Below are positions 1-63,200 of a stretch of DNA of 64,000 nucleotides, piece after piece (the first letter of the stretch is position 1; each line of letters opens with the position of its first letter). This DNA is from Candidatus Omnitrophota bacterium (GTDB lineage Bacteria; Omnitrophota; Gorgyraeia; 2-01-FULL-45-10). Made by a program: the position numbers and the translations under genes. The DNA lies in the NCBI GenBank assembly GCA_041648975.1, contig JBAZNZ010000002.1, positions 8,222 through 72,221 of the forward strand, in the 5' to 3' direction. A model generated the notes under the pieces. It was not told the DNA's origin and made no database searches. It was given only the letters and a program-made list of their open reading frames with translations.

Positions 1-754
1 CGTTGGAATCGTTAAAATATACCTGGTTCGTCATCCTTAACTTGGTTATGTCCGTCGGAAAGAAGCCCAGCTCATGCTCGACAAGGTTTCGCGTATCGAC
101 TCTCAGCTTTGAACCTTTGTTCCCGTTCGCAAGCCTCGCTTTCCTGCCGGTGTAATCCCTGCCAAGAAATCTGTATGTGACCTTCTGGTATATCCTCTTC
201 GTTATCTTATGCTTGATGCTCGTATTCACCTCGTTGCCTATAAAAGTGCCGTTCGTGTCGTGGGAGAACCACAACCCCTCAAAACCGTATCCGACACTCA
301 GCGTAAACATATCGAAGAGGCCCTGTTCTATACCGGCATAAGCATTCCCGTCGAGCATGTTGACATCGTTGATCCTGAAATAATTCACATTCATCATATT
401 AAAACCGAAATAGGAGCCCATCGGCCCGTATTTAAAATCATTTAAGGGATATTTGAAATCCATCCCCGCCGTCTCCTGGACATATCCGTCGCTCTTCTTG
501 TTGGAATTAAAGAGCGGGTTGGTGTCCAATCCCATCGTCACACCGACGATGGAATTGGCGGAGAGCTTATCCTTGGACGGGACGGTCCTTTGCCTTTGCA
601 TAAGGAACCTTTCAGTCGGCCTGGTCACAACTTTATATTTCGGCTCCTGCTCCTCCACCGTATCCGTCGCGGCGAGTATCGGGCCCGCTGAAAATGAAAA
701 AGCAACGCACAGAAGCAACATTAAAGCTTTCTTCCATCCAGAAATATTTCTCAT
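1..754 (-). CDS. Outer-membrane beta-barrel-like protein with signal peptide; 3' end runs off the window edge (partial)
   Basis: Minus-strand ATG at 754-752 preceded by a GGAGG ribosome-binding site. Translation starts MRNISGWKKALMLLLCVAFSFSAGPILAATD (signal peptide) and continues with alternating hydrophobic/Gly/aromatic beta-strand pattern (YAGIEQGLFDMFTLSVGYGFEGLWF). Absent from the ORF track only because no stop codon falls inside the window. Confidence 0.5.
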   Translation of the reverse strand, partial: MRNISGWKKALMLLLCVAFSFSAGPILAATDTVEEQEPKYKVVTRPTERFLMQRQRTVPSKDKLSANSIVGVTMGLDTNPLFNSNKKSDGYVQETAGMDFKYPLNDFKYGPMGSYFGFNMMNVNYFRINDVNMLDGNAYAGIEQGLFDMFTLSVGYGFEGLWFSHDTNGTFIGNEVNTSIKHKITKRIYQKVTYRFLGRDYTGRKARLANGNKGSKLRVDTRNLVEHELGFFPTDITKLRMTNQVYFNDSN

Positions 755-786
755 ACGATTTCCTCCGGCGATCATCATGTAGGACC

Positions 787-1584
787 TTAGGTCGTGTCCG
801 GTATGCTGACCCCTCCTTGCCTGGCCTCTATCCTCTGTTCATCCCTGTTTTCATTGACGTTATCCTTTTTAGAGTCTAGCTGGTCTATGGCATTCCCCAT
901 GTTGCCTGCCTGGTTGAGATTAACCATAGACGACAACCCCAACCTTGACAGCACATCCTGCCTCCACTCATTCCACTTCTGGAAGTCGCCGGCCGTCAAC
1001 CTCTCGAGGATCATCGCCTTATCCTTTTCCAGTATCAGCTTCCACCCCTCTTTTACATTTACCATATCCCCTTTTATATTACCGAACTCATCCAATATCG
1101 CCGTATAAATAGAATCCTCGAGCGCGCTGAACATGGAAGCCGCCTCATCGGCGCTTACGGTCCAGCCTGTTGCCCTTGCGCCGCTTAAACCGAGCGGTGT
1201 CTTTACCTCAAATGCCGACCCCTTGGGAAGATCGTTAATGAGCGCCATGGCCGTCCCGCTCATGAGCTCGATCAAGTAAGGCGATTCGGACTTCCTCACG
1301 AATACGTCGGAATTCGGTTCGATCCTTACTATGTTGGCGTCTTTTTTTGAGAAAGATATCTCGACAGCTTCTTTATCGAGCGTCTTTATCCTATCGCCGT
1401 TACCGACGGCCATCTTCAGATCGCACGGGCTCCATGTATTAGTCCCGGACTTCATTATCTTGGGATCGCCTTTCAGATAGACGATCTTAACATCACCCTG
1501 CTGAGCCTTCGCCATATTGAAGAAAACCACGGACATCGCCGCAAATACTATAAAAATAAGTCCAAACCTGACCGGCTTAACCAT
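787..1584 (-). CDS. Hypothetical membrane-anchored/periplasmic protein (possible FecR-like domain), last gene of the Mla operon
   Basis: 265-aa ORF with an N-terminal hydrophobic segment (LIFIVFAAMSVVFF). Sits directly downstream of mlaD on the same strand. Confidence 0.45.
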   Translation of the reverse strand: MVKPVRFGLIFIVFAAMSVVFFNMAKAQQGDVKIVYLKGDPKIMKSGTNTWSPCDLKMAVGNGDRIKTLDKEAVEISFSKKDANIVRIEPNSDVFVRKSESPYLIELMSGTAMALINDLPKGSAFEVKTPLGLSGARATGWTVSADEAASMFSALEDSIYTAILDEFGNIKGDMVNVKEGWKLILEKDKAMILERLTAGDFQKWNEWRQDVLSRLGLSSMVNLNQAGNMGNAIDQLDSKKDNVNENRDEQRIEARQGGVSIPDTT

Positions 1585-1597
1585 GTAGCACCCCTTC

Positions 1598-2236
1598 CTA
1601 TTTGCTCCCCTTCATTAAAAGTTTCCATGGATGGCGCTTTATATCCTCGCTGAATTCCTTGAAATTTACCGTGGTCTGTTCCAGGTTATTGGCGATGTTG
1701 CCTATATGTTCCTTATTGTCTTTGACTACGCCTGTTACATTTTCGGCCAGAAGCTTGACCTCTGCCAGGGTCTTGTCCAGGTTCTCGGCTATCGCATCCG
1801 CCCTCTTCATGAGTTTTCTCATCTCTATAGGGTCTTCGCTTAATAGGACCGCCCCGTCTTTAACAAATGGCTTTTCAACCGAACCGGAAGTGATACCTAT
1901 ATAGGCGTCCCCTATCATGCCGGACGTGGATATGAAAGCGACCGAGTCCTCATGTATCCTGGCAGTGTCTTTGATAGAGAGGACGAGCTCTATCTTTGTC
2001 TCCGGCACATACTGGAACGCTATGCTGTTCACGCGGCCGACTTCTATGCCGGCAAGCTTTACAATGGAGTCTATCTTTATGCCTTCAGCGTAATTGAAGT
2101 AGGTCTTCACCTTATACGGCTTACTTTTAAAATCGGTGGTCTTTACCCAGAAAGTAAGCCCCACTACTATCGCCGTGATGACTATTACGCCTGTCTTCAT
2201 CTCATTATTTATCTTCATCTCATTTCCTTTCATCAA
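1598..2236 (-). CDS. mlaD: MlaD-like MCE-domain substrate-binding protein
   Basis: N-terminal TM helix followed by an Mce/MlaD-type domain (KVKTYFNYAEGIKIDSIVKLAGIEVGRVNSI). Located after the mlaF and mlaE homologues. Confidence 0.8.
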   Translation of the reverse strand: MMKGNEMKINNEMKTGVIVITAIVVGLTFWVKTTDFKSKPYKVKTYFNYAEGIKIDSIVKLAGIEVGRVNSIAFQYVPETKIELVLSIKDTARIHEDSVAFISTSGMIGDAYIGITSGSVEKPFVKDGAVLLSEDPIEMRKLMKRADAIAENLDKTLAEVKLLAENVTGVVKDNKEHIGNIANNLEQTTVNFKEFSEDIKRHPWKLLMKGSK

Positions 2237-2272: not shown

Positions 2273-3070
2273 CTATTTTATGAGCTGCTCCAGGTAATCG
2301 TCTTTCTGCTGGAAAAACCTTATAGGCCCGTCGGGGCTGCCCATGACGAACTGCTGGACCATCTGGTTCGAACTCTTCTTTATCTGCTCCGGCGTCCCCA
2401 CCTCGAGGACTTTTCCTTCGTAAAGCATCGCTACCCTGTCCGCTATGGAAAATACGCTCTTCATATCGTGGGTCACCACGATGCTCGTTATGGCCAGTTT
2501 CTTGGAAAGATCTATTATGAGTTTGTCTATGACGCCGGCGACTATCGGGTCTAAGCCCGCCGTCGGTTCGTCGTAAAAGACTATCTCCGGGTCCATCACT
2601 ATCGCGCGCGCCAGCCCCACCCTCTTCCTCATGCCTCCTGAAAGCTGGCTCGGCATGAGATCCTCGAAGCCCCTCAAGCCCACAAGCTCCAGCTTCATCT
2701 TTACCACTATATCGATAACGCTCCTGTCGAGCCTGGTATGCTCCCTGAGCGGAAGGCTGACGTTCTCTCCGACAGTCATCGAATCGAAGAGCGCTGACGA
2801 CTGGAACGACATCCCGATCTTCTTCTTGACCTTGTCCATCTCGTCTTCGTTCAAAACGCTGAGGTCTTTTCCCAGCACGTGGACCTTGCCGGAATCGGGT
2901 TTCAGCGCGCCGATGAGATGCCGGAGGAATGTGCTCTTGCCGCACCCCGAGCCCCCCATTATCACGAACGTCTCGCCCCTGTATATCTCAAGGGATATGC
3001 CGTTCAGTATGGTCCGGTCGCCGAATCTCTTCACTACCTTATCGGCCTTTATTATAATCTCTTTTTCCAT
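2273..3070 (-). CDS. mlaF: ABC transporter ATP-binding protein MlaF
   Basis: Walker A motif GGSGCGKST, ABC signature LSGGMRKRVGLARAI, Walker B FYDEPTAGLD. About 265 aa, typical for MlaF. Confidence 0.85.
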   Translation of the reverse strand: MEKEIIIKADKVVKRFGDRTILNGISLEIYRGETFVIMGGSGCGKSTFLRHLIGALKPDSGKVHVLGKDLSVLNEDEMDKVKKKIGMSFQSSALFDSMTVGENVSLPLREHTRLDRSVIDIVVKMKLELVGLRGFEDLMPSQLSGGMRKRVGLARAIVMDPEIVFYDEPTAGLDPIVAGVIDKLIIDLSKKLAITSIVVTHDMKSVFSIADRVAMLYEGKVLEVGTPEQIKKSSNQMVQQFVMGSPDGPIRFFQQKDDYLEQLIK

Positions 3071-3082
3071 ATATTCATCGGC

Positions 3083-3877
3083 CTATTTCTGAGTAAAATA
3101 GAATAATCCCGTCAATATACAGTCAAACAGGATTATCAATATGAAACTGGTAACCACGCTGAGCGTCGTCGCCTTGCCCACGCCTTCGGCTCCGCCCTTC
3201 GCCCGAAGGCCCATGTAACATCCTATCAAAGAGATTATGATCGCGAATACGACGCTCTTGATGAGCCCGGTCCAAACGTCTTTCCACTGCATAAATTGGA
3301 AAGAGAACGTCAAATACCTGTAAGGATCGAGGCGGAGATTGAACACCCCGACTAAAAATCCTCCGAAGATGCCTGTCATATCGGCAACTATAGTAAGACA
3401 CGGCAGCATTACAAGAAGCGCCAGGAACCGCGGCACAACGAGGAACCTTATCGGGTTGAGCGCCATAGTCTCAAGCGCCTCTACCTGTTCCGTTACCTTC
3501 ATCGTCCCAAGTTCAGCCGCAATGGCCGCGCCGACGCGCCCGGCCACGACAAGCGCAGTAAGAACCGGCCCGAGCTCCCTGGCAATGCCTACGCTCACCA
3601 TCGGCGCCACGAATATATTCGCCCCGAACCTGGACAGCTGGTAAGCGCTCTGCATGGCTATAACTATCCCGGTGAAAAAGGATACGAAGAAAGCTATGAG
3701 GAAAGAGCCGGCACCGGCAAATACCATCTGGCTGAATATGCTTTCGCTCTTCACGAATTTGTTCTTCAAGGGCCCGGCTATGAGCCAATAGAGCGTATCA
3801 AAAAATAGGGCCAGCACATCCGAGATCTGCCGGCCCGTATTTAAAATAATGCCGCCTGTCTTTTCAAATAAGTTCAT
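3083..3877 (-). CDS. mlaE: ABC transporter permease MlaE
   Basis: 264-aa polytopic membrane protein with the MlaE/Ttg2B pattern. Gene order mlaE-mlaF-mlaD. Confidence 0.85.
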   Translation of the reverse strand: MNLFEKTGGIILNTGRQISDVLALFFDTLYWLIAGPLKNKFVKSESIFSQMVFAGAGSFLIAFFVSFFTGIVIAMQSAYQLSRFGANIFVAPMVSVGIARELGPVLTALVVAGRVGAAIAAELGTMKVTEQVEALETMALNPIRFLVVPRFLALLVMLPCLTIVADMTGIFGGFLVGVFNLRLDPYRYLTFSFQFMQWKDVWTGLIKSVVFAIIISLIGCYMGLRAKGGAEGVGKATTLSVVTSFILIILFDCILTGLFYFTQK

Positions 3878-3892
3878 AGTATGACGGCCTCG

Positions 3893-4228
3893 CTACATGA
3901 ACGTTGAGATGGCTTCTTCTTCGTCTGCCATTATTTCAAACAGCTTCTCGAGCTTGGTTATCTCGAAGAGGCTCTTTATCTTTGGAGAAAGGCCGGTTAA
4001 CCGCAGTCTTCCGCCGTAAGCTTTCATATTCTTTAGTGTCTCCACCAGAGTCGCAAGCCCGGATGAGTCCACATAAGTGACCTTGGTCAGGTTTATAACT
4101 ATCTTTGGCGTCTTTTGGGAAAGCAGCTTGTCGAAGGACTTCTTTATAGCCGGACTTGAGTTTATATCTATCTCGCCGTCTACATTACATACAGTCAATC
4201 CGTTCTTGGATTCTATCTTAACGGCCAT
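3893..4228 (-). CDS. STAS-domain protein (anti-sigma-factor antagonist, SpoIIAA/RsbV-like; possible MlaB analogue)
   Basis: 111 aa. The conserved phospho-serine context VTYVDSSGLATLV is typical of anti-anti-sigma STAS proteins. Confidence 0.75.
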   Translation of the reverse strand: MAVKIESKNGLTVCNVDGEIDINSSPAIKKSFDKLLSQKTPKIVINLTKVTYVDSSGLATLVETLKNMKAYGGRLRLTGLSPKIKSLFEITKLEKLFEIMADEEEAISTFM

Positions 4229-4255
4229 AAATCATCTCCTTTTCTGCTTCGCCTT

Positions 4256-4591
4256 TCACGCGTCTAATGTTCTGAATCTTTTTATCATCCTTATTCTATT
4301 TCCTGATTCATTGAATTCGACCTTGTCCATCAATTTCAATATAAGATATACGCCTCTGCCGGAATTCCTGAGGATGTTTCCATCCTTGGTAGGATCCGGA
4401 AGGAGCTTATGGTCAAAACCCGCTCCCCGGTCCTCGACCTCGATATTAAGGATACCGTCATCGACCCTGCAATCCACCTTGACCGGTAATTTCCTGTTCG
4501 ATCGGTTGCCGTGGACGATCGCGTTCCTGACGGCCTCTTCCACGCATAACTTTATATCGAACAGCGCTTCTTCTTCCAATTTATATGGCAA
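4256..4591 (-). CDS. RsbW/SpoIIAB-like anti-sigma factor serine kinase (GHKL ATPase); TTG start
   Basis: N box EEAVRNAIVHGN, G1 box VEDRGAGFD, G2 box GRGVYLILKLMDKVEF. The start codon is TTG at 4591-4589. The upstream in-frame stop coincides with the accA stop, and no ATG/GTG lies between them. Confidence 0.65.
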   Translation of the reverse strand: MPYKLEEEALFDIKLCVEEAVRNAIVHGNRSNRKLPVKVDCRVDDGILNIEVEDRGAGFDHKLLPDPTKDGNILRNSGRGVYLILKLMDKVEFNESGNRIRMIKRFRTLDA

Positions 4592-4675
4592 AAGGCTTTT
4601 AGTGATCTTCGAAGAGATTTCTTTTACATACTTTATCTCGCTGGGAACAGTTATAATAATCGCTTTAGCTCCGTT

Positions 4676-5653
4676 CTATTTTTCCGTGAATTTACCGATC
4701 GCCCGTATCCTGGAGTACCTCATATCCAGCAATTTGGTCCCGGACAGGCCCTTTAACTCGGCCAGGTCCTTCTTTATTACCTTCTTTATGTTATCGGCCG
4801 ACTCCTGAGGATTCCTGTGCGCCCCGCCGAGAGGTTCTTTTATTATACCATCGATAATTTGCATTTCAAATAAATCTTTCGCCGTCAATTTCAGCGCTGC
4901 GGCCGCGTCAGGCGCTCTCGAGCGCTCCTTCCACAATATGGCCGCGCACCCTTCGGGGGATATCACCGAATAATATGAATTTTCAAGTACATATGTCCTG
5001 TCGCCGATACCTATGCCGAGCGCCCCGCCGGATCCGCCTTCCCCGATAACAAATATGATCACCGGCGTAGCCAGGTCGGCCATCCTTCTTAAATTGTACG
5101 CGATCGCCTCAGCCTGGCCCCTCTCTTCAGCGCCTATCCCCGGATACGCTCCCGGCGTATCAATAAACGAAATTACCGGCAGGCTGAACTTTTCGGCCAT
5201 CTTCATCACCCGGATAGCCTTCCTGTACCCTTCCGGATGCGCGCTGCCGAAATTCCTTTCAAGGTTCTCTTTGGTATCCTTCCCCTTCTGGTGTCCTATA
5301 ACTACGATATTTTCACCGCCCACTTTCGCCAGGCCGCAGATCATCGCCTTGTCGTCGGCGTAATGCCTGTCGCCGTGGATCTCTATGAAATCCGTCATCA
5401 TCATATCTATATAGTCAAGTGTATACGGCCTTTTGGGATGACGGGCTATCTGCACCCTCTGCCACGGAGTCAGGTTATCATATATCTCTTTCTTTATGCG
5501 AGAGAGCTTCTCCTCGAGTCTTGTTACCTCCCCGGATATGTCTATGTCCTTATGGGCGGTGAACCCTCTGAGCTCGCCTATCTTCCTCTCCAGCTCTAAT
5601 ATGGGCTTCTCGAATTCCAACCCGTAAACATGTATAGCCATGTGATACTCCAA
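4676..5653 (-). CDS. accA: Acetyl-CoA carboxylase carboxyltransferase alpha subunit
   Basis: 325 aa. Conserved AccA blocks: PKRPYTLDYI, FIDTPGAYPGIGAEERGQAEAIA, GEGGSGGALG. Confidence 0.9.
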   Translation of the reverse strand: MEYHMAIHVYGLEFEKPILELERKIGELRGFTAHKDIDISGEVTRLEEKLSRIKKEIYDNLTPWQRVQIARHPKRPYTLDYIDMMMTDFIEIHGDRHYADDKAMICGLAKVGGENIVVIGHQKGKDTKENLERNFGSAHPEGYRKAIRVMKMAEKFSLPVISFIDTPGAYPGIGAEERGQAEAIAYNLRRMADLATPVIIFVIGEGGSGGALGIGIGDRTYVLENSYYSVISPEGCAAILWKERSRAPDAAAALKLTAKDLFEMQIIDGIIKEPLGGAHRNPQESADNIKKVIKKDLAELKGLSGTKLLDMRYSRIRAIGKFTEK

Positions 5654-9982: not shown

Positions 9983-11289
9983 AGGCCGCTTCCCGTCAAT
10001 ATTTCCCGCGCTTCGCCCACCACGAATAGCGAACCCGTTATCAGTATAAGATCTTCTGCTCCGGCCTTTGACTTTGCCTGTCTCACGGCTTCTTCAACAT
10101 TCGAGGTAACAACCGAATTTTTGGATGTTATCAATGCTTTCATCCTTGCCGGGTCGAGCGAGCGTTCGGCAATACGGGACTTTGTCAATACAACAGAATC
10201 CGTTATCGGTAAAAGTTCTTTCAGTATCCCCTCTATGTCTTTGTCGCTTGAAACGCCGAGCGCAAGTATTAATTTTTTATATTTAAATATCGTCTTAACG
10301 GAATCGGCAAGCGCCCTCGCGCTTGCGGCGTTCTGCGCGCCGTCCAGCACGATATGGGGCCTCTTCGACACTACCTCAAGCCTGCCGTCCCACCTGGCGG
10401 AGGCGATCCCGACTCTTATCGCTTTCGGAGATACCGCTATGCCATGATCGCCGAGAGATTCCACGATCCCGACGGCCGTCGCCGCGTTGATGACCTGATG
10501 GGCGCCTAAAAGCTTCGTCTCCAACGCGAGGTATTCGCCCGCCATTCCGGATACATTGAAGACCTCTTTCTCTTCCGCGCTCTCCAGTTCTTTAAATTTT
10601 ATATCTCTTCCGACTACTACCAGCTTTGCGTTTTTGCGTTTGCAGACGTCTTTGATGGTTTCCATCGCCTCTTCTTCCTGCGGCGCGGTAACACATACGA
10701 GGCCATCTTTGATTATCCCGGCTTTTTCATAGGCTATCTCACGGAGCGTATGACCCAATTTATCGGTATGCTCGTAACTTATCGGCGTAATGGCGCAGAC
10801 GAGCGGTTCTATGATATTAGTCGCGTCCAGCCTGCCGCCGAGGCCGACTTCGTAGACTGCAAGATCAACGGCATTTTCCTTGAAATAAAGATAAGCGATG
10901 GCTGTGTAGACCTCAAAAAAGGACGGCGCTTCCGCGCCCATCTCCGACAGCGCGCCCTTTACATTATCCAGAAGCCTTCCCACATCCTCTTCTTTTATGA
11001 AGGCTTCATTTATCCTGATCCTCTCGCAGAAAGACGAAAGGTGAGGAGATGTATAGAGCCCTACTTTAAATCCGGATTTTCTTAATATTGAATATGTTAT
11101 GGCGCAGGTCGAACCTTTACCTTTCGTTCCCGCCACATGGATAGACTTTATGCCTTTTTGCGGATCTCCGAGGAGAGATGAAAGTTTCCTCATCCTGTCT
11201 AATCTAAACGATCTATTATAGTCGTAGCTGTTGAGCTTCTCGTAATTGGTGAATTCGTTAAGGTATTCCAGGGCTTCGGGGTAAGTCAT
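9979..11289 (-). CDS. folC: Folylpolyglutamate synthase / dihydrofolate synthase
   Basis: Mur-ligase P-loop HVAGTKGKGST. FolC family length of 436 aa. Overlaps the mnmE start by 4 bp. Confidence 0.85.
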   Translation of the reverse strand: MTYPEALEYLNEFTNYEKLNSYDYNRSFRLDRMRKLSSLLGDPQKGIKSIHVAGTKGKGSTCAITYSILRKSGFKVGLYTSPHLSSFCERIRINEAFIKEEDVGRLLDNVKGALSEMGAEAPSFFEVYTAIAYLYFKENAVDLAVYEVGLGGRLDATNIIEPLVCAITPISYEHTDKLGHTLREIAYEKAGIIKDGLVCVTAPQEEEAMETIKDVCKRKNAKLVVVGRDIKFKELESAEEKEVFNVSGMAGEYLALETKLLGAHQVINAATAVGIVESLGDHGIAVSPKAIRVGIASARWDGRLEVVSKRPHIVLDGAQNAASARALADSVKTIFKYKKLILALGVSSDKDIEGILKELLPITDSVVLTKSRIAERSLDPARMKALITSKNSVVTSNVEEAVRQAKSKAGAEDLILITGSLFVVGEAREILTGSGL

Positions 11290-11298
11290 GGGATAAGA

Positions 11299-11386
11299 TA
11301 GTTACCAGTTACCAGTTACCAGTTACCAGAATAGTCAAACTGCCACTTTTCTTTTCTGGTTACTTCCTTTCTGGTTTCTGGTTACT
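11299..11386. repeat. Inverted arrays of AGTTACC heptamer repeats (x4 and x3) between the purH stop and the folC start
   Basis: 11299-11329 reads AGTTACCAGTTACCAGTTACCAGTTACCAGa. 11355-11386 reads tCTGGTTACttcctttCTGGTTTCTGGTTACt, the complementary units. Confidence 0.8.
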
Positions 11387-11393
11387 ATTGTTT

Positions 11394-13028
11394 TTAATGC
11401 TTAAAATGCCGTACTCCCGTAAAGACCATTGCTATGCCGAGTTTGTCGGCCATCTTTATGACCTCCGCGTCCCGTATCGATCCGCCCGGCTGTATTATGG
11501 CCTTGGCGCCGGCTTGCGCTGCCTGCTCGATCCCGTCTTCTTTAGGGAAGAACGCGTCGCTGGCGAGCGTGGAATCCTTCGACTTTGCTCCCGCCTTTTC
11601 AGCGGCGATCTTGACAGAAACCACCCTGGACATCTGTCCGGCTCCTACGCCAACTGTCTTCGTGCCCTGGCACAACACTATCGCGTTGGATTTGACGTGT
11701 TTGGCGACCACCCATCCGAAAAGCAGCGACTCTATCTGAGCTTTTGTCGGCTTGGCTTTGGTGACAACCTTAAGATCGGACTCTTTGATATGCGCCAGGT
11801 CCCTGTCCTGGATAAGAATGCCTCCCACGACCTTCTTCATGTCCCTATCCGGAGCGCCTGGTCTTGAGCCGAATCCTTCGACAAGCTCAGGATTCGGCCC
11901 TGAGCCTGTCGAAGGGCCAAAATTCTTCACTTCCAGAAGGCGCAGGTTCTTTTTTGTCCGCAATGCATCGAGCGCCCCTTTTTCATACGACGGCGCTATT
12001 ATGCATTCGACAAAATCAGCTTCCTTGAGGATGGTATTCGCCACCTCTATATCCACAGGGCGGTTGAACCCGACGATGCTTCCGAAAGCGCTGAGACGAT
12101 CGCAATCAAGCGCGTCTATGTAAGCCTGCTTCAGGGTTTTGGCAACGGCCGTCCCGCAAGGGTTGGTGTGCTTTATTATGGCCGCGGCAGGCGCTTCGAA
12201 TTCTTTCACTATTTCAAGGGCCGCATTAAGATCGATTATGTTATTAAAAGAAAGCTCTTTGCCGTGAAGTTGCGCCGCGCAGGAGACGCTTGGCTCATTG
12301 GCCGCTTCATCTTTATAAAATGCCGCCTTCTGGTGCGGGTTCTCTCCGTATCTCAGGTCCTGAAGTTTTTTGAATTTTAAATCGAGCGCCTGCGGGAAAT
12401 CTTCGTCCTGGCCATCGGCCCCTTGCCCTTTCAGATATGCGTATATCGCCGCGTCGTAACACGACGTCTTCTGGAATACCTTCACTCCCAGTTCGACTAA
12501 AAGGTCCTCCGATACGCTGCCGTTTCGCTTCTCCATCTCTTCGATGACCCTCTTATAATCGGCGACATCGCACACTACACATACGCTCCTGTGGTTCTTT
12601 GCCGCGCTTCTCAGCATTGAAGGCCCGCCGATGTCTATATTCTCTATCGCCTCTTCAAGTTTAGTGCCCGGCTTCGCTACCGTCTTCTCGAAAGGATAGA
12701 GATTGACGACAACCATATCTATAAGGCCGATCCCATACTTCTTAACGGTCTCCATGTGTTCTTTGTTATCGCGCAGCGCCAACAGCCCGCCGTGGACCTT
12801 CGGATGAAGCGTCTTCACCCTGCCGTCGAGCATCTCGGGAAAACCCGTATGCTCGGAAACGTCTTTTACGTTAATACCGAGAGCCCTTATGGCCTTAGCC
12901 GTCCCGCCCGTCGATAGTATCTCAACGCCGAATTTATTCAAAACCTTTGCAAGATCCTCCAGACCGGACTTATCCGACACGCTTATGAGCGCCCTGTTAA
13001 TCTTCACGTTAACTCCTCCTTGCCTCAT
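11394..13028 (-). CDS. purH: Bifunctional AICAR transformylase / IMP cyclohydrolase
   Basis: N-terminal MGS-like domain [12 protein letters not shown]...ILSTGGTAK followed by the AICARFT domain. 544 aa. Confidence 0.9.
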
Positions 13029-42288: not shown

Positions 42289-42602
42289 CCCGCACCTTCC
42301 TTCCTTAAATTTAACGTTGTATTTTATAAAGAGATTTTTTTACAATACCTTTCCCGCACCAAAAGATATTAGAAGGTGCGGGGTTTATGTGGATGCTGCC
42401 TCCTATTTTATTCTAGCGTCAGATTTGCGTACAAATTTGATATTGAGGCAGCGCTAAGAAATGCGAACGAATAGTGAGCATTTTAGCTGCCGAAATATCT
42501 TACCCGTCACCCCCGCGCGTTGTTATAGGTCCTTCGTCGGACTACTATCTAACCGTATCCTCCTCAGGATCATTTTTTACCCGAGTTAGACTATTGTAAA
42601 AA

Positions 42603-42677
42603 ATGGAGCGGCGGATGGGTTTCGAACCCACGACATCGACCTTGGCAAGGTCGCATTCTACCACTGAATTACCGCCG
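42603..42677 (-). tRNA. tRNA-Gly (GCC)
   Basis: Reverse complement GCGGCGGTAATTCAGTGGTAGAATGCGACCTTGCCAAGGTCGATGTCGTGGGTTCGAAACCCATCCGCCGCTCCA. Cloverleaf with anticodon loop TTGCCAA. CCA is encoded. Confidence 0.9.
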
Positions 42678-42957
42678 CTTTTGCAAAGCAAAAGCGATGC
42701 TGAGCTAGCCATGAAGCGCGACGAACAGGAGCGCTTCAGGCGACGCGAAGCACCTATGCTTCGACTAAAATATAATTGCGCTAAAGTCTGACCGCTTGCC
42801 CGTGAACTGATCCTAGGTCCTTCGTTGGCCTACAGTTTGACTCCAGCCTCCTCAGGATCTTTCTCTTCATATTGTCTATAGGTATTTCAGCCGCTAAAAT
42901 CCTTCCTTTGGTCGGATTTCTTTACGCGGCTTCAATATCAAAATTGCTTCGCAATTT

Positions 42958-43033
42958 TGGTGCCCGCACCAAGAATCGAACTTGGAACCTTGACATTAAG
43001 AGTGTCCTGCTCTGCCAATTGAGCTATGCGGGC
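42958..43033 (-). tRNA. tRNA-Lys (CTT)
   Basis: Reverse complement GCCCGCATAGCTCAATTGGCAGAGCAGGACACTCTTAATGTCAAGGTTCCAAGTTCGATTCTTGGTGCGGGCACCA. Anticodon loop CTCTTAA. Confidence 0.85.
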
Positions 43034-43150
43034 AATCTCAGTCAGTTTTAGCGCAATAAATTGTTGAGCCTAAACCCGACCTTAAACTATTCATGGCGAA
43101 ATCCGCCGAAGCACCTTCTAGCTTGCGCCTTGATTGCGGAGGCGGAAGCT
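43034..43150. repeat. Partial tandem duplication of the tRNA-Lys upstream unit, ending in a copy of the first 12 nt of the tRNA
   Basis: The unit is homologous to the tRNA-Arg 120-bp repeat (ATTGTTGAGCCTAAACCCGACCTTAAACTATTCATGGCGAAATCCGCCGAAGC...). It ends GAAGCTATGCGGGCG, matching the tRNA-Lys 5' end AGCTATGCGGGC. Confidence 0.65.
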
Positions 43151-43523
43151 ATGCGGGCGTCGCGAAAACCGTCCTGCTATATCGCTCCTTAGAAGGAAAC
43201 CTAGGTTTCCTTCTAACGTCCCGCCAGGACTATAACTCTGGGCGGGACTGTTTTCCTTCCTCTAACTTTAACACCAAAAACAAAAAAAGCATGGAATAAA
43301 ATTCGCTATATCTAAAAATCCCTAGTTGCTTAGAGCGATAATTATATCAAAATCATAAATTAAATGCAATAAATTCTATTAGATATGGCAAAATACGTAA
43401 TTTAGCCAATTTTATTCTGACTATTTCATTCCACTCGAGCTGATATAGGTCCTTCGTCGAACCGCAGTCTAACTCAATCCTCCTCAGGATCAAATTTTAC
43501 CTGAGTGAGACTGCAGTAAAATT

Positions 43524-43608
43524 TGGTGCGGGCGAAGGGATTTGAACCCCCAAGCCTTGCGGCATACGGTCCTAAGCCGTACACGTCTGCCAATTCCGTC
43601 ACGCCCGC
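43524..43608 (-). tRNA. tRNA-Leu (TAG), long variable arm
   Basis: Reverse complement GCGGGCGTGACGGAATTGGCAGACGTGTACGGCTTAGGACCGTATGCCGCAAGGCTTGGGGGTTCAAATCCCTTCGCCCGCACCA. Anticodon loop CTTAGGA. Confidence 0.85.
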
Positions 43609-43929
43609 GTAAGTCCACTTAAGTCACATCGTCAGAGTTTAGGTATTTTGTGCATTGCGCTGTTGTATTCGCTTTGCGCAAGGCCAATTCCGCCACTTCT
43701 ATCTGACTGGATATCTCTTGCACTTCCAGCCTAAGTGACGGGCCACGTCCGCTGAAATTTATGTATAAATTTCATCCCGAGGCTGCGACAAATCGGAGCA
43801 GCCGAGGGAATACATCTTAAGTCAAATCGTCAAAGTATATTACAGTTTTTTATCTGTAGCCCCTCGCAGCTTGACTAAAATACATGCTGCTCGGGACAAA
43901 TTTCGCCTGAGTTAGGCTGCGGCAAAATT

Positions 43930-44006
43930 TGGCGCGCCCGGGGTGAATCGAACACCCAGCCTACTGGTTCGAAGCCAGCCACTCTATCCAATTGAGCTAC
44001 GGGCGC
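43930..44006 (-). tRNA. tRNA-Arg (TCG)
   Basis: Reverse complement GCGCCCGTAGCTCAATTGGATAGAGTGGCTGGCTTCGAACCAGTAGGCTGGGTGTTCGATTCACCCCGGGCGCGCCA. Anticodon loop CTTCGAA. Confidence 0.85.
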
Positions 44007-44246
44007 TTTTACTCAAATAAGCACAAAAATTGTTGAGCCTAAACCCGACCCTAAACTATTCATGGCGAAATCCGCCGAAGCTTCAACCGGTATCGCTGAT
44101 TCAGCGAAGGCGGAAGCTACGGGCGCTTTTACTCAAATAAGCGCAAAAATTGTTGAGCCTAAACCCGACCCTAAACTATTCATGGCGAAATCCGCCGAAG
44201 CTTCAACCGGTATCGCTGATTCAGCGAAGGCGGAAGCTGCGGGCGC
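44007..44246. repeat. Two tandem 120-bp copies of the tRNA-Arg upstream region, each ending with the first 12 nt of tRNA-Arg
   Basis: Period measured from AAACCCGACC at 44041 and again at 44161. Both units end GGCGGAAGCTACGGGCGC (unit 2 reads GCTGCGGGCGC). The tRNA 5' end is AGCTACGGGCGC. Confidence 0.8.
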
Positions 44247-53705: not shown

Positions 53706-54374
53706 TTACTTCAGCTTTTCAGGGTGGTGTTTGACGACCTCGGCCTGGACCATATATATGACGTCTTCGGCTATATTTGTAGTATGGTCGCATATGCGCT
53801 CCAGGAAGCGGGCTATGAGCAGCAGTTGAACGGCCCTCGGGGCCGTAGAAGCATCTTTAACCATATAATCCTCTATCAACTCTTTTTGTATCGCGTTCCT
53901 AAGGCGATCGGCCTCGGAATCGGACAGCGCTACTTTTTTCGCCGACTCTATGTCCCCTTTGATGAACGCGTCTATCGCCATCCTCACCATGCCTTGCGCG
54001 AGGGCCGTCAATTTCGGTATATCCACCAGAGGTTTCAAGAAAGGTTTATCGACGATCTCCAAAGTGCGCTGGGCTATATCTACCGCTATATCGGCTATCC
54101 TTTCGAGTTCCGAATTTATTTTCATGGCGGTAGCGATGATGCGCAGGTCTTTTGCCATAGGCTGATAGCGGGCGATCAGGTCGATGCATCTTTCATCGAC
54201 TTCCAACTCCAGTTTATCGACAAACTTATCGGCATCGACCACGGCCTGGGCCATCCCTCTATCGCGGTTCTTCAGCGCCTCTATCGACTTATAGATGGCC
54301 TCTTCGGCATAAGCCCCCATCCTCAGGATCTCAATATTCAGCTCTTTCAGTTCCTGGTCCATGTGGCGTTCCAT
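53706..54374 (-). CDS. phoU: Phosphate signalling regulator PhoU (copy 1)
   Basis: 222 aa, two PhoU repeats. About 70 percent identical to the second copy at 61293..61970. Confidence 0.9.
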   Translation of the reverse strand: MERHMDQELKELNIEILRMGAYAEEAIYKSIEALKNRDRGMAQAVVDADKFVDKLELEVDERCIDLIARYQPMAKDLRIIATAMKINSELERIADIAVDIAQRTLEIVDKPFLKPLVDIPKLTALAQGMVRMAIDAFIKGDIESAKKVALSDSEADRLRNAIQKELIEDYMVKDASTAPRAVQLLLIARFLERICDHTTNIAEDVIYMVQAEVVKHHPEKLK

Positions 54375-54401
54375 ATCGATCTCCTTTTCCCTTTTTACTT
54401 T

Positions 54402-55157
54402 TTAACCGTATCTTCCTGTAATGTAATCCTCTGTCCGCTTATCGCGCGGAGCGGTAAATATCCGTTCGGTCTTGTCGAACTCCACAAGTTCGCCCAATAA
54501 CATGAATCCGGTATCGTCGGAGACGCGCGCCGCCTGCTGCATGTTATGGGTCACTATTATTATAGTATAATCGGACTTCAATTCACGCATTAATTCTTCG
54601 ATACGCATCGTAGCCTCCGGATCGAGAGTCGAACAGGGCTCATCCATTAACAGCACATCCGGTTTAACGGCTATAAGCCTGGCTATGCACAGCCTCTGCT
54701 TCTGTTCCAATGACAGGCCGAGAGCCGGCTTATTCAGCCTGTCCTTTAATTCATCCCAAAGGAGGACGCTCTTCAGGCTCTTCTCCGCTATATCATCAAG
54801 CTCATCGCGTTTTACGTTATCGGCGTGTATCCTCTCTCCGAAAACGATATTCTCATATATGGACAGAGGGAAAGGATTCGGACGCTGGAAGACCATGCCG
54901 ACTTTTTTACGCAGACGCACCAGGTCTGTGCAGGACTTAAGGATGTCCGCGCCGTCGATCAGGATCTCGCCTTTTGTCCTCACTCCGTCGATCATGTCAT
55001 TCATCCTGTTGAAGACCCGCAGCAAGGTAGACTTACCGCAGCCGGAAGGCCCGATCACAGCAGTGATATTCCGCTCCTTAAAAACCGCGTTCACGTCTTT
55101 TAGCGCGCGAAAGCTGCCGTACCACAAGTCCAGTTTTTTTATCGCTATCTTATCCAT
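54402..55157 (-). CDS. pstB: Phosphate ABC transporter ATP-binding protein PstB (copy 1)
   Basis: Walker [10 protein letters not shown]. PstB-type C-terminus. Confidence 0.9.
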
Positions 55158-55169
55158 GATGTTTAGGCC

Positions 55170-55928
55170 TTATCCGAATTTTCCTCTTACATATCCGTCA
55201 GTGCGTTTGTCGGACGGCGCGGTAAATATCTTTTCCGTCCTGTCGATCTCTACAAGTTCTCCGTTCAGGAAGAACGCAGTCCTGTCAGCCACCCTCGAGG
55301 CCTGTTTCACGTTATTTGTCACGAGCACTATCGTATATTTTTTCTTTAACTTGAGCATAGCGTCTTCTACCTTGGCCGTAGATATCGGATCCAGCCCCGA
55401 ACACGGCTCATCGAACAGTATCACCTCCGGCCCTACCGCCAGGGTCCTGGCTATGCAAAGGCGCTGCTGCTGCCCTCCCGATAATTTGAACGCGGATTCT
55501 CCCATCCTGTCCTTTACCTCTTCCCATAGATAAGCTTCTTTCAGCGCATTCTCTGTTCTTTCGCCCAGCTCCCGTCTGTTCGTTAAACCGTGCCTCCTCA
55601 ACCCGTAGGCCACGTTTTCGAATATTGACAGCGGCAGCGGCAGGGGCAGGGCGAATACCATACCCACTTTTGCGCGCAGCTCTTCAGCGTCGACCTTGCG
55701 GATGTCCTTGCCTTCGAACATTGCTTTCCCGCTCATCTTAAAATCGGCGGACAGGTCATTAAGGCGGTTGAGCGTCCTTAAAAAGGTCGTCTTGCCGCTG
55801 TTAGAAGGCCCTATCACGCCCAGTATCTCATTGCGGCGCACACCGAGGCTTACCCGCCTCAAGACATGCGCGCTGCCGAACCATATATCTAGGCCATTTA
55901 TTTCAAAGACTTCGCTTCTCTCTACCAT
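55170..55928 (-). CDS. pstB: Phosphate ABC transporter ATP-binding protein PstB (copy 2, tandem)
   Basis: Walker A GPSNSGKTT, signature [13 protein letters not shown]. Immediately follows copy 1, a pstBA/pstBB-like arrangement. Confidence 0.9.
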   Translation of the reverse strand: MVERSEVFEINGLDIWFGSAHVLRRVSLGVRRNEILGVIGPSNSGKTTFLRTLNRLNDLSADFKMSGKAMFEGKDIRKVDAEELRAKVGMVFALPLPLPLSIFENVAYGLRRHGLTNRRELGERTENALKEAYLWEEVKDRMGESAFKLSGGQQQRLCIARTLAVGPEVILFDEPCSGLDPISTAKVEDAMLKLKKKYTIVLVTNNVKQASRVADRTAFFLNGELVEIDRTEKIFTAPSDKRTDGYVRGKFG

Positions 55929-58675: not shown

Positions 58676-60451
58676 TTATTTAGGAAGCGTGAAGTAGAAC
58701 TTCGACCCGAAACCCTCGACGCTTTCTACGCCGACTTTCCCTCCGTGTAATTCTACGATATGCTTGACGATAGAAAGCCCGAGCCCGGTACCGCCCAGTT
58801 CGCGCGAACGCGCCTTGTCGACCCTGTAGAACCGCTCGAATATCCTGGGAATATCTTTTTCGGGAATGCCGGCGCCTGAATCTTCAACGGTGATCTTCAC
58901 TTCACCGTCTTTTTCCTCGCCGACGATCCTGATGCTCCCTTTATCCTTATTGAATTTTATCGCGTTATCGATCAGGTTGGTCAATACCTGCTCTATCCTG
59001 TTCTCATCGGCCATGACCGAGATCCCCGGCGCCAATTCGTTCATCACTTCTATACTCTTCTTGCGCAGCTGCGATTTAAACCCCAGGATAATCCCCTCGG
59101 CCAGCCGTCGCAGGTGTATCTCTTTCTTCTCAAGCGCGATCTCTTTCGATTCGAGATGCGACAGGGAGAGCAGATCGTCGACCAGGCTATTGAGCCGCTC
59201 GGCGTGCTCCTGGATGATCCTTAAGAATTCGCGGCTATTTTCCCTGTCATCCACTGCGCCGTCTAAGAGCGTCTCTACGAAACCTTTGATCGATGTGAGC
59301 GGCGTCTTCAATTCATGGGATACGTTGGCGATGAAATCGCTCCGGATAGTCTCCAGCCTCCTGATCTGGGTTATGTCATGTATGACTACCAGGCATCCCG
59401 AAACGTCTTCATTGTCGAAGATCGGCGCGGCGTTCACCTCAAATATCCCGCGAATGGGATAGACAAGCTCGATATGGGCTGAGGCAACCTGTCCATCCCG
59501 CAAAACGGCGTTTATGACTTCTGAGATATCGTTATTGCGTATCGTTTCCAGGAATGCCCTTCCATGCGCGTCTTTCTTTAATACGCCGAATATCTTCTCT
59601 ATAGTGGGATTGATGGAGACGATACGCCCCTCTCTGTCTATTATTATGACCCCTTCGACCATGCTGCTGAATATCGCCGCGAGTTTCTGATTCTGGGCCT
59701 TGATCTCGGTTATCTTACTTTCTATATCCTCTGCCATATTATTAAGCGTGTCTGCCAGCTCTCCCATCTCATCTTTGGGGCCCTGTATGATCCTGCGGCT
59801 GAAATCGCCTTTTGAAAATCTGCGTGAGATCTGGATAATCCGTCTTACCGGCTTCATGGTATTCTGCGCTACCAATGAACCCAGGACAAATGCAAGCGCC
59901 AGGGCAAATAGAAATCCCGCGGCGACTATCTTTCTTATGGCTGAAAGCGTCTGCTGTACGCTTTCCAGGGTAAGAGCTAACCTCAATACGCACTCGGGCC
60001 TCTCCTTATTTTTAAGCAACAATGCCGCATAGAGCATATCGATCTTCAGGGTCGGGGAATAACGGATATCCGTGCCTGTGCCGCCGTCCCGGGCGCTCCT
60101 CACCTCCGGCCGGTTCAGGTGGTTTTCCATTCTCGAGATATCTTCAGAGGTTTTCCCGGAATCCGCGAGGACTTTGCCGCGGTCATCGATGACGGTGATC
60201 CGGCATTTAGCCTTAAGACTGAGCTCTCTTACCAGCCTGATCAGAGAGGCATGTCCTTCCTCATTAAGGATATCTGCGGTGATCCGGCTCCCGATCAAAT
60301 TTGCCTGCGTGATGAGGGTGTCCTTGATATTGCGGAGGGAATTCTCTTCCAGGTTCCTATCGAGGAAGAATGCCACCAGACCAAATGACGTCAATATTAC
60401 AACGGCATACGATAGGATCAGTTTTGATTTAAAACTTATTTTTGCCGCCAT
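58676..60451 (-). CDS. phoR: Sensor histidine kinase PhoR-like (TM, HAMP, PAS, HisKA, HATPase)
   Basis: H box SHELKTPLT. N, G1 and G2 boxes present. 591 aa. Confidence 0.85.
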   Translation of the reverse strand: MAAKISFKSKLILSYAVVILTSFGLVAFFLDRNLEENSLRNIKDTLITQANLIGSRITADILNEEGHASLIRLVRELSLKAKCRITVIDDRGKVLADSGKTSEDISRMENHLNRPEVRSARDGGTGTDIRYSPTLKIDMLYAALLLKNKERPECVLRLALTLESVQQTLSAIRKIVAAGFLFALALAFVLGSLVAQNTMKPVRRIIQISRRFSKGDFSRRIIQGPKDEMGELADTLNNMAEDIESKITEIKAQNQKLAAIFSSMVEGVIIIDREGRIVSINPTIEKIFGVLKKDAHGRAFLETIRNNDISEVINAVLRDGQVASAHIELVYPIRGIFEVNAAPIFDNEDVSGCLVVIHDITQIRRLETIRSDFIANVSHELKTPLTSIKGFVETLLDGAVDDRENSREFLRIIQEHAERLNSLVDDLLSLSHLESKEIALEKKEIHLRRLAEGIILGFKSQLRKKSIEVMNELAPGISVMADENRIEQVLTNLIDNAIKFNKDKGSIRIVGEEKDGEVKITVEDSGAGIPEKDIPRIFERFYRVDKARSRELGGTGLGLSIVKHIVELHGGKVGVESVEGFGSKFYFTLPK

Positions 60452-61151
60452 CCGACACCCGGTCTTCGTCGTCGAACCTGTACCCGTAATTCTTGACTGT
60501 CACAATGCGCCCCGATTCGCCCTTCAGCTTCTTTCGGAGCGTCGTTATGTGCACATCCACCGTGCGCGTCTGTATCTCCGAGGCCTGGTCAAAACCCCAA
60601 ATATTATCCAGCAGATAGTCGCGCGACAGGACCCTGCCCTTAGCCTTTATGAGCGTCTTTAGAAGTTCAAACTCTTTGGAGGTGAGCTCTATTGCCTTGC
60701 CTTTAACCGTCACCGCTATCCTGGACAGGTCGATCACGAGGTCGCCCGCTTTCAATATATCTTGCGGCTTGCCCTTATCGCCCGCCCTGCGCAAAACCGC
60801 TTTTATACGCGCTATCAATTCCCGAGGGCTGAAAGGCTTTGTAATATAATCATCGGCGCCCAATTCAAGTCCGACGATCTTATCCGATTCCTGGCTTTTC
60901 GCTGTAAGCATTATTACGGGGATAACTGTTGTTTTAGGATCCGCTTTAAGGACTTTGCATACCTCTAAGCCGTCAATGCCGGGAAGCATAAGATCTAGGA
61001 TGATCAGGTCGGGCCGTCCGCTCTTTACCGCCGCCCCGGCGTCTTCCCCGCTTCGGACGGATATAGTCTTAAAGCCTTCCTTCTTGAGGTTGTACTCCAG
61101 CATCTTGACTATATCTTTTTCGTCTTCGACGAGCAGTATGGTCGCTTTCAT
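60429..61151 (-). CDS. phoB: OmpR-family response regulator PhoB-like
   Basis: Receiver domain ILLVEDE plus winged-helix C-terminus. Overlaps the phoR start by 23 bp. Confidence 0.85.
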   Translation of the reverse strand: MKATILLVEDEKDIVKMLEYNLKKEGFKTISVRSGEDAGAAVKSGRPDLIILDLMLPGIDGLEVCKVLKADPKTTVIPVIMLTAKSQESDKIVGLELGADDYITKPFSPRELIARIKAVLRRAGDKGKPQDILKAGDLVIDLSRIAVTVKGKAIELTSKEFELLKTLIKAKGRVLSRDYLLDNIWGFDQASEIQTRTVDVHITTLRKKLKGESGRIVTVKNYGYRFDDEDRVSDGGKNKF

Positions 61152-61292: not shown

Positions 61293-61970
61293 TTATTTAT
61301 CGCCTGTTAACTTCTCGGGATGATGTTTGACGACCTCGGCCTGGACCATATAGATCACATCTTCCGCGATGTTGGTAGCGTGATCGCATATTCGCTCAAG
61401 GAACCGGGCTATCAGGAGAAGCTGAACAGCCCTTGGAGCCGTAGAAGCGTCTTTAGCCATATAGTCTTCTATCAGCTCTTTTGTTATCAGATTCCGCAGC
61501 TTATCGGCCTCGCCGTCGGATAATATGACCTTCTTGGCCAGTTCCACGTCACCCTTTACAAATGAGTCCACAGCCATCTTAACCATATTTTGGGCTACTA
61601 CCGTCAGTTTAGGGATATCGACTAAAGGTTTAAGCAAAGGTTTGTTGACTATCTCAAGCACGCGCTGCGCTATGTCTACGGCGATGTCGGCTATCCTTTC
61701 AAGCTCGGCGTTTAATTTCATGCCGGTTGTGATAAAGCGCAGGTCTTTGGCCAGGGGCTGGTGTCTCGCGATAAGATCTACACATTTTTCGTCTACGACC
61801 AATTCAAGCCTATCGATATTGTTATCATTCTCTATTACCGCTTTTGCCAGTTTCGCGTCCCTCCCCTTTAACGCTTCTATGGACTTATGGATGGCATCCT
61901 CGGCAAAGATCCCCATCTTCAATATATCCTGGTTCAGATCCTTTAATTCTTCGTCAAAATGTCTTTTCAT
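61293..61970 (-). CDS. phoU: PhoU (copy 2)
   Basis: 225 aa, clear paralogue of 53706..54374. Confidence 0.9.
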   Translation of the reverse strand: MKRHFDEELKDLNQDILKMGIFAEDAIHKSIEALKGRDAKLAKAVIENDNNIDRLELVVDEKCVDLIARHQPLAKDLRFITTGMKLNAELERIADIAVDIAQRVLEIVNKPLLKPLVDIPKLTVVAQNMVKMAVDSFVKGDVELAKKVILSDGEADKLRNLITKELIEDYMAKDASTAPRAVQLLLIARFLERICDHATNIAEDVIYMVQAEVVKHHPEKLTGDK

Positions 61971-62045
61971 TGAAATTTCCCCTTTTTTCGCTATGAAATT
62001 TCATCCCGAGCCGCTGTCATCTAATTCCCGCGGCGAGGGACTACC

Positions 62046-62441
62046 TTATCTCTGTTTCTGCAGGTCAAAATGTATCTTCCGCGGAAGCTCCGTTCTGATA
62101 CGAAGCACGGCCTCTTGCGGCGGAAATTTTTCGTCTATCGGGATTGCCCGGATCTTCACGTAATCGTCCTTATCCAATATGCCGGTAAACCGGTAGACAA
62201 AAGGCGTTGTGCCTATTAATTTTCCGTCCCACTTGATCCTGGCCTCGCTCGGCCCGGCAGTGACCCGTATCTCGTATCCGTTATATTCATACGACTTGCC
62301 GTTATACCAATAATTGTTCGGCTCCACCGGATTGAGCTGAAAAGAGCCCAACGCGGAGACAGCATCGGAATTGCGTATTTCATCGACAGACGCGCACGAC
62401 GACAATAATAAACAAACGGCGATACATGCGATAATTTTCAT
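62046..62441 (-). CDS. Hypothetical lipoprotein
   Basis: Lipobox LLLSSC. 131 aa. Confidence 0.5.
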
Positions 62442-63196: not shown

Positions 63197-63200
63197 TGGC

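Follow-up and report, generated by a model that had tools for sequence, protein, structure and literature searches.

The 64,000-nucleotide (nt) stretch analyzed here, which we call the window, is part of the genome of a Candidatus Omnitrophota bacterium (contig JBAZNZ010000002.1, positions 8,222 to 72,221 of the forward strand), and near its left end a serine kinase of the RsbW/SpoIIAB type and a STAS-domain protein are encoded between accA and the transporter genes mlaE, mlaF and mlaD. What is new in this locus is the combination of an Mla transporter with a partner-switching module, and the gene order recurs across 80 species-level Omnitrophota genomes, which is far beyond chance. Our reading of the locus, to which we give a probability of about one half, is that the STAS protein serves as a phospho-switchable, MlaB-like subunit that gates MlaFE and is reset by an envelope-sensing phosphatase. 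The main support for this mechanism is genomic context, which suggests it through the placement of the genes, a cassette that is independent of its flanks, the tight spacing of the STAS gene and mlaE, and the lack of a sigma gene.

The cassette and its conservation in Omnitrophota

Domains were assigned to the open reading frames (ORFs) by Pfam and NCBIfam profile searches of the window proteins. All genes of the locus lie on the minus strand, in the order accA, kinase, STAS, mlaE, mlaF, mlaD, a FecR-domain gene and a hypothetical ORF. The accA gene, for acetyl-CoA carboxylase carboxyltransferase alpha (4676..5653; Pfam ACCA, E = 5e-148), ends with a TAG at 4678-4676 directly upstream of the kinase gene, which codes for an RsbW/SpoIIAB-type GHKL serine kinase (4256..4660, counted from a candidate ATT start that is discussed below; the mechanical ORF from a TTG, 4591..4256, has 111 codons and matches HATPase_c_2 with E = 2.6e-26). 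The STAS gene (3893..4228) encodes a protein of 111 amino acids (aa) of the SpoIIAA/RsbV type (Pfam STAS, E = 3.4e-23), and mlaE starts 15 nt past its stop codon. The permease gene mlaE (3083..3877) was identified by Pfam MlaE (E = 3.6e-81) and by TIGR00056, with 248.6 bits at a cut-off of 212.2. For the ABC ATPase gene mlaF (2273..3070; Pfam ABC_tran, E = 8e-34) the top NCBIfam match was MlaF PRK11831, scoring 252 bits and thus under the proteobacterial equivalog cut-off of 441, and for the 212-aa MCE-domain protein encoded by mlaD (1598..2236; Pfam MlaD, E = 2.6e-16) MlaD was also the top NCBIfam match. The Mla/MCE core is therefore present in one operon with its MlaE-family permease, MlaF-like ATPase and MCE-domain protein, and neither mlaC nor mlaA was found in the locus. 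The profile matches bear out the coordinates and the HATPase_c and STAS domain calls of an earlier reading made from the letters of the window (hereafter the sequence-only reading), as well as the YVDSSGLA motif that it had noticed in the STAS protein and the accA and mlaEFD flanks.

That reading had also proposed looking for kinase-STAS-mlaEFD synteny in other genomes of the lineage. For this comparison, the best 80 of 318 stretches with relatives of the STAS query were retained, with one genome per GTDB species and Omnitrophota only sampled; all 80 are Omnitrophota-type metagenome-assembled genomes (MAGs) or single-amplified genomes, some of them labelled 'uncultured Planctomycetia', and the identity of the STAS orthologs among them is 54-86%. 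Synteny was counted by tblastn with the window proteins, and only loci on contigs reaching far enough were included. The outcome was strongly positive, with the kinase gene just upstream of the STAS gene in 77/79 loci, mlaE right after STAS in 72/73, mlaF present in 71/71 and mlaD present in 66/66. The accA gene was found upstream of the kinase gene in 63/67 loci, and 32/37 have a CHASE2-SpoIIE phosphatase gene no more than 9 kb downstream. Where both mlaD and the phosphatase gene were available, the latter follows mlaD directly in 24 loci and after intervening genes in 29. The median intergenic gaps are 13.5 nt between kinase and STAS and 20 nt between STAS and mlaE.

Five distinct genomes have in common the order accA, kinase, STAS, mlaE, mlaF, mlaD, FecR-domain gene, hypothetical gene and CHASE2+SpoIIE gene. 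Four further loci (L006, L007, L030 and L032) have different flanks and no accA, and in these a compact six-gene core is intact, composed of kinase, STAS, mlaE, mlaF, mlaD and CHASE2-SpoIIE, with mlaD and the phosphatase gene overlapping by 4 nt. The transporter genes are thus placed between the STAS and phosphatase genes, a placement unlike that of the classical rsb or spoIIA operons.

Both domains of the phosphatase are complete, CHASE2 at approximately residues 20-330 and SpoIIE/PP2C at approximately 447-636. In a Logan assembly of the same genome (L088), the 354-aa ORF with a beta-barrel-like match (BBP2_2, E = 5e-5) is followed by a 413-aa partial ORF that matches CHASE2 with E = 6e-55 and runs to the contig end, which places the third component of the module just beyond the left edge of the window. 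The kinase-STAS pair described by the sequence-only reading is indeed present, but it is not just a pair, since the CHASE2-SpoIIE phosphatase completes the module downstream of mlaD.

Between mlaD and the phosphatase gene lie the FecR-domain gene (787..1584; Pfam FecR, E = 2.5e-7), which occupies the same position in many, not all, loci, and the gene for the 354-aa hypothetical protein, of which the window holds the 5' part (1..754, running off the left end) with its weak match to BBP2_2, a beta-barrel-porin family. The FecR-domain and beta-barrel-like genes (window 1-1584; stretch L088:8163-10057) might supply the periplasmic and outer-membrane part of the system. The FecR-domain protein is also weakly similar to LipL45 and Lsa33 of Leptospira. 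As a separate observation, a gene with GAF plus HD domains (HD_5, HD-GYP-like) follows right after the phosphatase gene at L001:14744-15859 and L003:9437-10549, and it does not do so in L005 or L006.

The STAS protein as a candidate switch on MlaF

In the mechanism that we propose, the unphosphorylated STAS protein would use its helical face to bind MlaF, in the manner of E. coli MlaB, and would stabilize or activate MlaFE. The RsbW-like kinase of the operon would phosphorylate Ser55, upon which the STAS protein would be released and the transporter switched down, and the membrane-bound CHASE2-PP2C protein would dephosphorylate the STAS protein upon an extracytoplasmic (envelope) signal, so that transport would be turned back on. 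We infer three elements of this scheme, namely the action of the kinase on this STAS protein, the binding of the STAS protein to MlaF, and the direction in which the switch acts. In a fuller version, which we put forward more tentatively, the MlaF ATPase would hold the place of the sigma factor, and the STAS protein would be a natural phospho-switchable analogue of MlaB that is tied to lipid synthesis through co-transcription with accA.

The structural basis for such a contact is known from E. coli, where MlaB binds the helical subdomain of MlaF via its helices alpha-1 to alpha-3, and where MlaF leaves MlaED when MlaB is lacking (Kolich 2020, PMC7367683). Thr52 of MlaB lies near the middle of the surface where MlaF and MlaB meet and its replacement in T52E weakens binding, while MlaF's C-terminal extension inserts Tyr261, Leu265 and Leu266 into the MlaF-MlaB groove (PMC7367683). 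The phosphoregulation of MlaB was raised in the same work as an open question (PMC7367683), and no kinase is known for MlaB.

Ser55 of the STAS protein in the window, with its codon at 4066-4064 and its place within YVDSSGLA, is predicted to accept the phosphate, and DSSGL is found in 80/80 loci, as Y[VIM]DSSGL. When the protein was aligned by hhalign with E. coli MlaB, using a sequence identical to 6XBD chain K, residues 44-87 aligned with MlaB 41-84, which places Ser55 opposite MlaB Thr52 at the start of helix alpha-2. The alignment with MlaB is limited to the helical core and this Ser/Thr position. Because this position is at the center of the MlaF interface, phosphorylation of Ser55 would be expected to release the STAS protein. 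On the side of the ATPase, the MlaF of the window aligns end to end, extension included, with MlaF of A. baumannii, P. aeruginosa and E. coli. Its C-terminal extension (residues ~241-265, window 2350-2276, DGPIRFFQQKDDYLEQLIK) follows the consensus DGPIxFFQQKDDYLExL[ITM]x, in which the Y and the L at +4 (Y-x3-L) are kept, and over 72 sequences the conservation of the extension is 0.80 in comparison to 0.82 for the ABC core. As a side observation, the mlaF of L070 (~11186-11977) has an in-frame stop codon (..SFQS*ALFDS..), reflecting either a sequencing error or a pseudogene.

The conservation of the STAS protein itself peaks in helices alpha-2 (0.87) and alpha-3 (0.83). As a whole, the STAS protein is more conserved than the kinase or the phosphatase, which is consistent with several binding partners. 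An argument that it is as conserved as MlaF was dropped as strong evidence, since this is the case among close relatives only and distant STAS proteins (54-60%) fall below MlaE and MlaF. In database comparisons, a protein from a Candidatus Omnitrophota MAG at NCBI matches it with 100% identity, and there are hundreds of relatives with 76-88% identity, the named ones being from Omnitrophota/Omnitrophica or annotated as 'anti-sigma B factor antagonist'. A second STAS paralog of 121 aa, with VDYLDSSGL and about 30% identity, was seen about 8 kb downstream in two loci (L077:17502-17867 and L062:18264-18593, minus strand), where it adjoins a 606-aa ORF that appears by eye to be outer-membrane-receptor-like. 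This paralog stands alone with no adjacent kinase or sigma gene, and it was set aside as uninformative.

Several results weigh against a transporter-gating STAS protein. By family models, the protein passes TIGR00377 (anti-sigma-factor antagonist) with 92.6 bits at a cut-off of 53.45, while the MlaB model NF033618 gives only 34.6 bits at a cut-off of 90 (E = 2e-8, profile positions 15-90 of 94), and its sequence matches in the PDB are SpoIIAA (E = 2e-14) and RsbV (4e-13), with MlaB chains at 0.02. The AlphaFold2 model (pLDDT 79, from a shallow alignment of 22 close sequences) has a fifth strand (98-100) and a last helix (103-110), both absent from MlaB, which is a minimal STAS domain of a 4-stranded sheet and 3 helices without the fifth strand and final helix (PMC7367683). 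When this model was compared with the PDB by Foldseek, SpoIIAA came top with a TM score of 0.86, followed by RsbV, the other matches including RsbS and SLC26 STAS domains, and no MlaB chain was among the 50 best matches listed. Since it fails the MlaB cut-off and its modelled topology is the full SpoIIAA one, the STAS protein is by profile and predicted fold a SpoIIAA/RsbV-type antagonist that lies outside the MlaB family.

Further points of the same tendency concern the switch itself. The T52A form of E. coli MlaB is non-functional and yet still binds MlaF (PMC7367683), so that simple phosphoregulation cannot be taken for granted. In Veillonella, MlaF carries a C-terminal extension in shorter form and yet there is no MlaB, and the extension is for that reason consistent with, and not diagnostic of, a STAS partner. 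The helical face also binds the kinase in SpoIIAA-type proteins, as in the SpoIIAA-SpoIIAB complex, and because MlaF and the kinase would both use this face, its conservation does not discriminate between them. To these are added the 5/37 loci without a phosphatase gene within 9 kb and the kinase gene of this genome, which has no canonical start codon. The phosphorylation-controlled MlaB-like subunit that the sequence-only reading had envisaged is accordingly supported in part, by operon anatomy, synteny and the phosphatase, but the STAS protein is not MlaB by sequence or fold. A lack of MlaB features had been named there as evidence to the contrary, and on this point the comparison is divided, with a score below the MlaB cut-off and a SpoIIAA fold on one side and an aligned helical core and Ser/Thr position on the other.

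The alternative that survives best, although we regard it as unlikely, is a classical anti-sigma switch, in which the sigma factor (group-3 or housekeeping) would be encoded elsewhere and sequestered by the kinase, the STAS protein would act as antagonist only, the CHASE2-PP2C protein would provide the input, and the mla genes would be co-transcribed passengers or part of the regulon. It draws on the same family results, as the STAS protein passes TIGR00377, its closest solved structures are those of SpoIIAA and RsbV in kinase complexes, and its topology is the full SpoIIAA one; likewise, the best family matches of the kinase are RsbW and SpoIIAB, which are also its closest named PDB relatives, and further STAS paralogs exist in Omnitrophota genomes (L077). 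In Chlamydia, the sigma genes are unlinked to the rsb genes and the housekeeping sigma factor has been proposed as the kinase target. Against this stands that the Pfam lists for five annotated loci (+/- 8-10 kb) contain no family of sigma factors and that the window ORFs scanned, including ten further ones, contained no sigma factor, the ten being also without STAS, GHKL kinase or PP2C domains. The kinase is moreover far under the NCBIfam equivalog cut-offs, with 54 bits vs 145 for RsbW and 51.9 vs 135 for SpoIIAB. Finally, the insertion of the mla genes between the STAS and phosphatase genes persists over 66-77 species and through changes of the flanks, for which passive hitch-hiking is no explanation.

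An improbable alternative is a true partner switch with an Mla component, most likely MlaF, in the role of the sigma factor; the kinase would bind and inhibit MlaF, and the unphosphorylated STAS protein would lift the inhibition by capturing the kinase and would never touch the transporter. The same synteny speaks for it as for the gating by the STAS protein, and the STAS protein does resemble an ordinary antagonist more than MlaB. We know, however, of no GHKL anti-sigma kinase that binds an ABC ATPase; the conserved MlaF extension and the match of Ser55 with Thr52 fit an MlaB-like contact better, and among the cytoplasmic components of the cassette the kinase shows the lowest conservation.

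Start codon and integrity of the kinase gene

The sequence-only reading had stated that the kinase gene is in frame with accA, with no ATG, GTG or TTG from the accA TAG to the TTG at 4591, and this was confirmed; the use of that TTG as the start is probably wrong. Counted from the TTG, the protein covers HATPase_c_2 at profile positions 23-127 of 127. With 28 in-frame upstream codons added, the coverage of PF13581 becomes 2-127/127 (E = 1e-27), and these codons encode the conserved kinase N-terminus, with the consensus IxIxIPSEIKYIKKVSS in our alignment of the kinases (A1). It is this restored coverage which indicates that TTG 4591 is probably not the true start. The relatives of the kinase are 55-66% identical and typically 135-149 aa long.

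In most relatives the kinase ATG is inside the 3' end of accA in another frame, and in L001 and L003 it uses the +1 frame and the two genes overlap by 41 nt. In comparison to these two, the window has lost the ancestral ATG (TATG to TACT) and has undergone a one-base frame change, such that the N-terminal kinase codons are now in the accA frame without an ATG, GTG or TTG. L005 and L021 are also without a canonical kinase start, and at least three Omnitrophota species share the trait. The missing start is found as well in the Logan assembly of the same genome and in L089, a MAG of this species at NCBI, for which NCBI annotates an ATA kinase start equivalent to window 4636. An assembly or sequencing error was considered as the cause and rejected, as three assemblies of this species, and likewise the related L005, agree. 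The region concerned is window 4589-4678 (minus strand), L005:2480-2551, the corresponding part of L021, and L089:465-506.

A comparison of the window with L005 over the 24 codons that precede the TTG gives 10 synonymous changes, 8 non-synonymous ones that are mostly conservative, and 6 identical codons. This pattern argues that the upstream codons are translated and under purifying selection. A GGAG Shine-Dalgarno-like motif (4669..4672, minus strand) lies 8 nt upstream of an ATT at 4660-4658, and in L005 an ATA occupies this place, with GAGGAG about 7 nt ahead of it. Initiation at a non-canonical AUU or AUA codon thus appears most likely from the nucleotide comparison, and the low efficiency of such a start may be deliberate and serve to set the kinase:STAS ratio.

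The same observations bear on the idea that the STAS protein is a constitutive MlaB-like subunit, with the kinase gene decaying in this genome and phosphorylation irrelevant. The loss of the ancestral ATG, the frame change and the missing canonical start, which L005 and L021 likewise show, are what one would expect from decay. We nevertheless hold this idea to be more improbable still than an inhibition of MlaF by the kinase, because the missing start is shared by three independent assemblies, the 24 upstream codons are open and mostly synonymous or conservative in comparison to L005, and GGAG/GAGGAG is at the right distance before ATT/ATA in both genomes. In addition, the catalytic motifs are all intact, with the N-box Asn, G1 (DxGxG) and G2 (GxG) present and with E46, N51, D82, G84, G86, G106, R107 and G108 invariant in A1, and the kinase is kept in 77/79 species.

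The least probable of the alternatives is that the switch regulates acetyl-CoA carboxylase and fatty-acid synthesis (AccA), or couples lipid synthesis to transport via the STAS protein; the accA gene upstream in 63/67 loci, its 41-nt overlap with the kinase start in relatives and the STAS domain of YchM bound to acyl carrier protein in structure 3ny7 favor it, but lineages without accA at this place keep the kinase-STAS-mlaEFD-PP2C core, and the locus contains no other acc or fab genes.

Within accA, a promoter-like site (4842..4869, minus strand; TTGAAA, 16-nt spacer, TG-TATAAT) has 11/12 sigma-70-like consensus matches. The site, known from the consensus match alone, is about 180 nt upstream of the kinase and could be an internal promoter giving the kinase-STAS-mla genes a transcript of their own.

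Comparison with known systems and further observations

The closest functional parallel is the MlaFEDB complex of E. coli (PDB 6XGY, 6XBD; Thong 2016, Kolich 2020), which has in common with the present locus MlaE, MlaF and MlaD together with a small single-domain STAS protein from one operon, as well as the equivalence of Ser55 and Thr52 and an MlaF extension with Y-x3-L. The two differ in that the STAS gene here precedes mlaE while mlaB is the last gene of the E. coli operon, and in that the STAS protein has a full SpoIIAA-type fold and its own kinase and phosphatase, with no mlaC or mlaA in the locus. A kinase and a phosphatase are in no described Mla system. With the SpoIIAA/SpoIIAB/SpoIIE (sigma F) and RsbV/RsbW/RsbU (sigma B) modules of B. 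subtilis the locus shares the same three protein types, and these provide the closest solved structures. Unlike those modules, it has no sigma gene, an inserted ABC transporter, a CHASE2 sensor on the phosphatase and a kinase under the equivalog cut-offs. A phosphorylatable STAS protein that is itself the effector, as is proposed here, is found in SypA/SypE of Vibrio fischeri (PMC10120452, PMC4517449) and in STAS-only proteins (PMC8256260), and the outputs of these systems are biofilm formation, secretion or gene regulation, with no ABC transporter found among them.

The Mla components of 1083 genomes were surveyed by Grasekamp 2023 (PMC10665443), and according to that paper MlaABC is mostly restricted to Proteobacteria and short MlaD is almost restricted to this group. 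The minimal MlaEFD systems of non-proteobacterial diderms described there likewise have the Mla core without MlaA and MlaC; in the present locus, MlaD is short (212 aa) and followed by the FecR-domain and beta-barrel-like genes, in contrast to the long MlaD of those systems. Supplementary Dataset 1 of the survey records an 'MlaB in cluster' directly before MlaE, MlaF and MlaD in 2/5 Omnitrophica genomes (KJJ84113.1 and KPK42235.1), and a kinase or phosphatase is not mentioned in the sections consulted (PMC10665443). This independent cataloguing of a STAS protein in the mla cluster speaks for the MlaB-like reading. The arrangement had been called undescribed by the sequence-only reading, which has to be narrowed, as a STAS gene beside mlaE was already catalogued in PMC10665443, whereas for the phospho-switch around the STAS protein no earlier description was found in the literature searched. 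More generally, no paper that connects Mla or MlaB with a kinase, with partner switching, with RsbW or with CHASE2-PP2C was found in a search that left most subscription journals uncovered.

If the proposed gating of MlaFE is true, the locus would represent the first case of a partner-switching module that has a transporter as its output and would extend partner switching from transcription to the direct control of an ABC transporter, and the question of the phosphoregulation of MlaB-type subunits would be answered directly in the positive. It would also suggest a route by which the outer-membrane lipids are adjusted to envelope signals in this phylum, many members of which are ultra-small. 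If the sigma-factor explanation is true instead, the locus would be a more ordinary envelope-stress operon. The six-gene cassette is a concrete, clonable system for work in vitro.

Elsewhere in the window, a minus-strand cluster of four tRNA genes (for Gly-GCC, Lys-CTT, Leu-TAG and Arg-TCG) sits in repeated DNA at 42500-44240, where elements of 49-62 nt recur beside the tRNAs and a 120-nt tandem duplication (43995-44234, 99% identical) starts within the 5' end of tRNA-Arg. Two phosphate-transport gene sets were read by eye at 53706-55928 and 61293-63989 (minus strand), with two neighboring genes that look like pstB plus a phoU-like gene, followed by a further phoU-like gene, a further pstB-like gene and pstA/C-like genes, and between the two sets, at 58676-61151, are genes that by eye are sensor-kinase-like and response-regulator-like.

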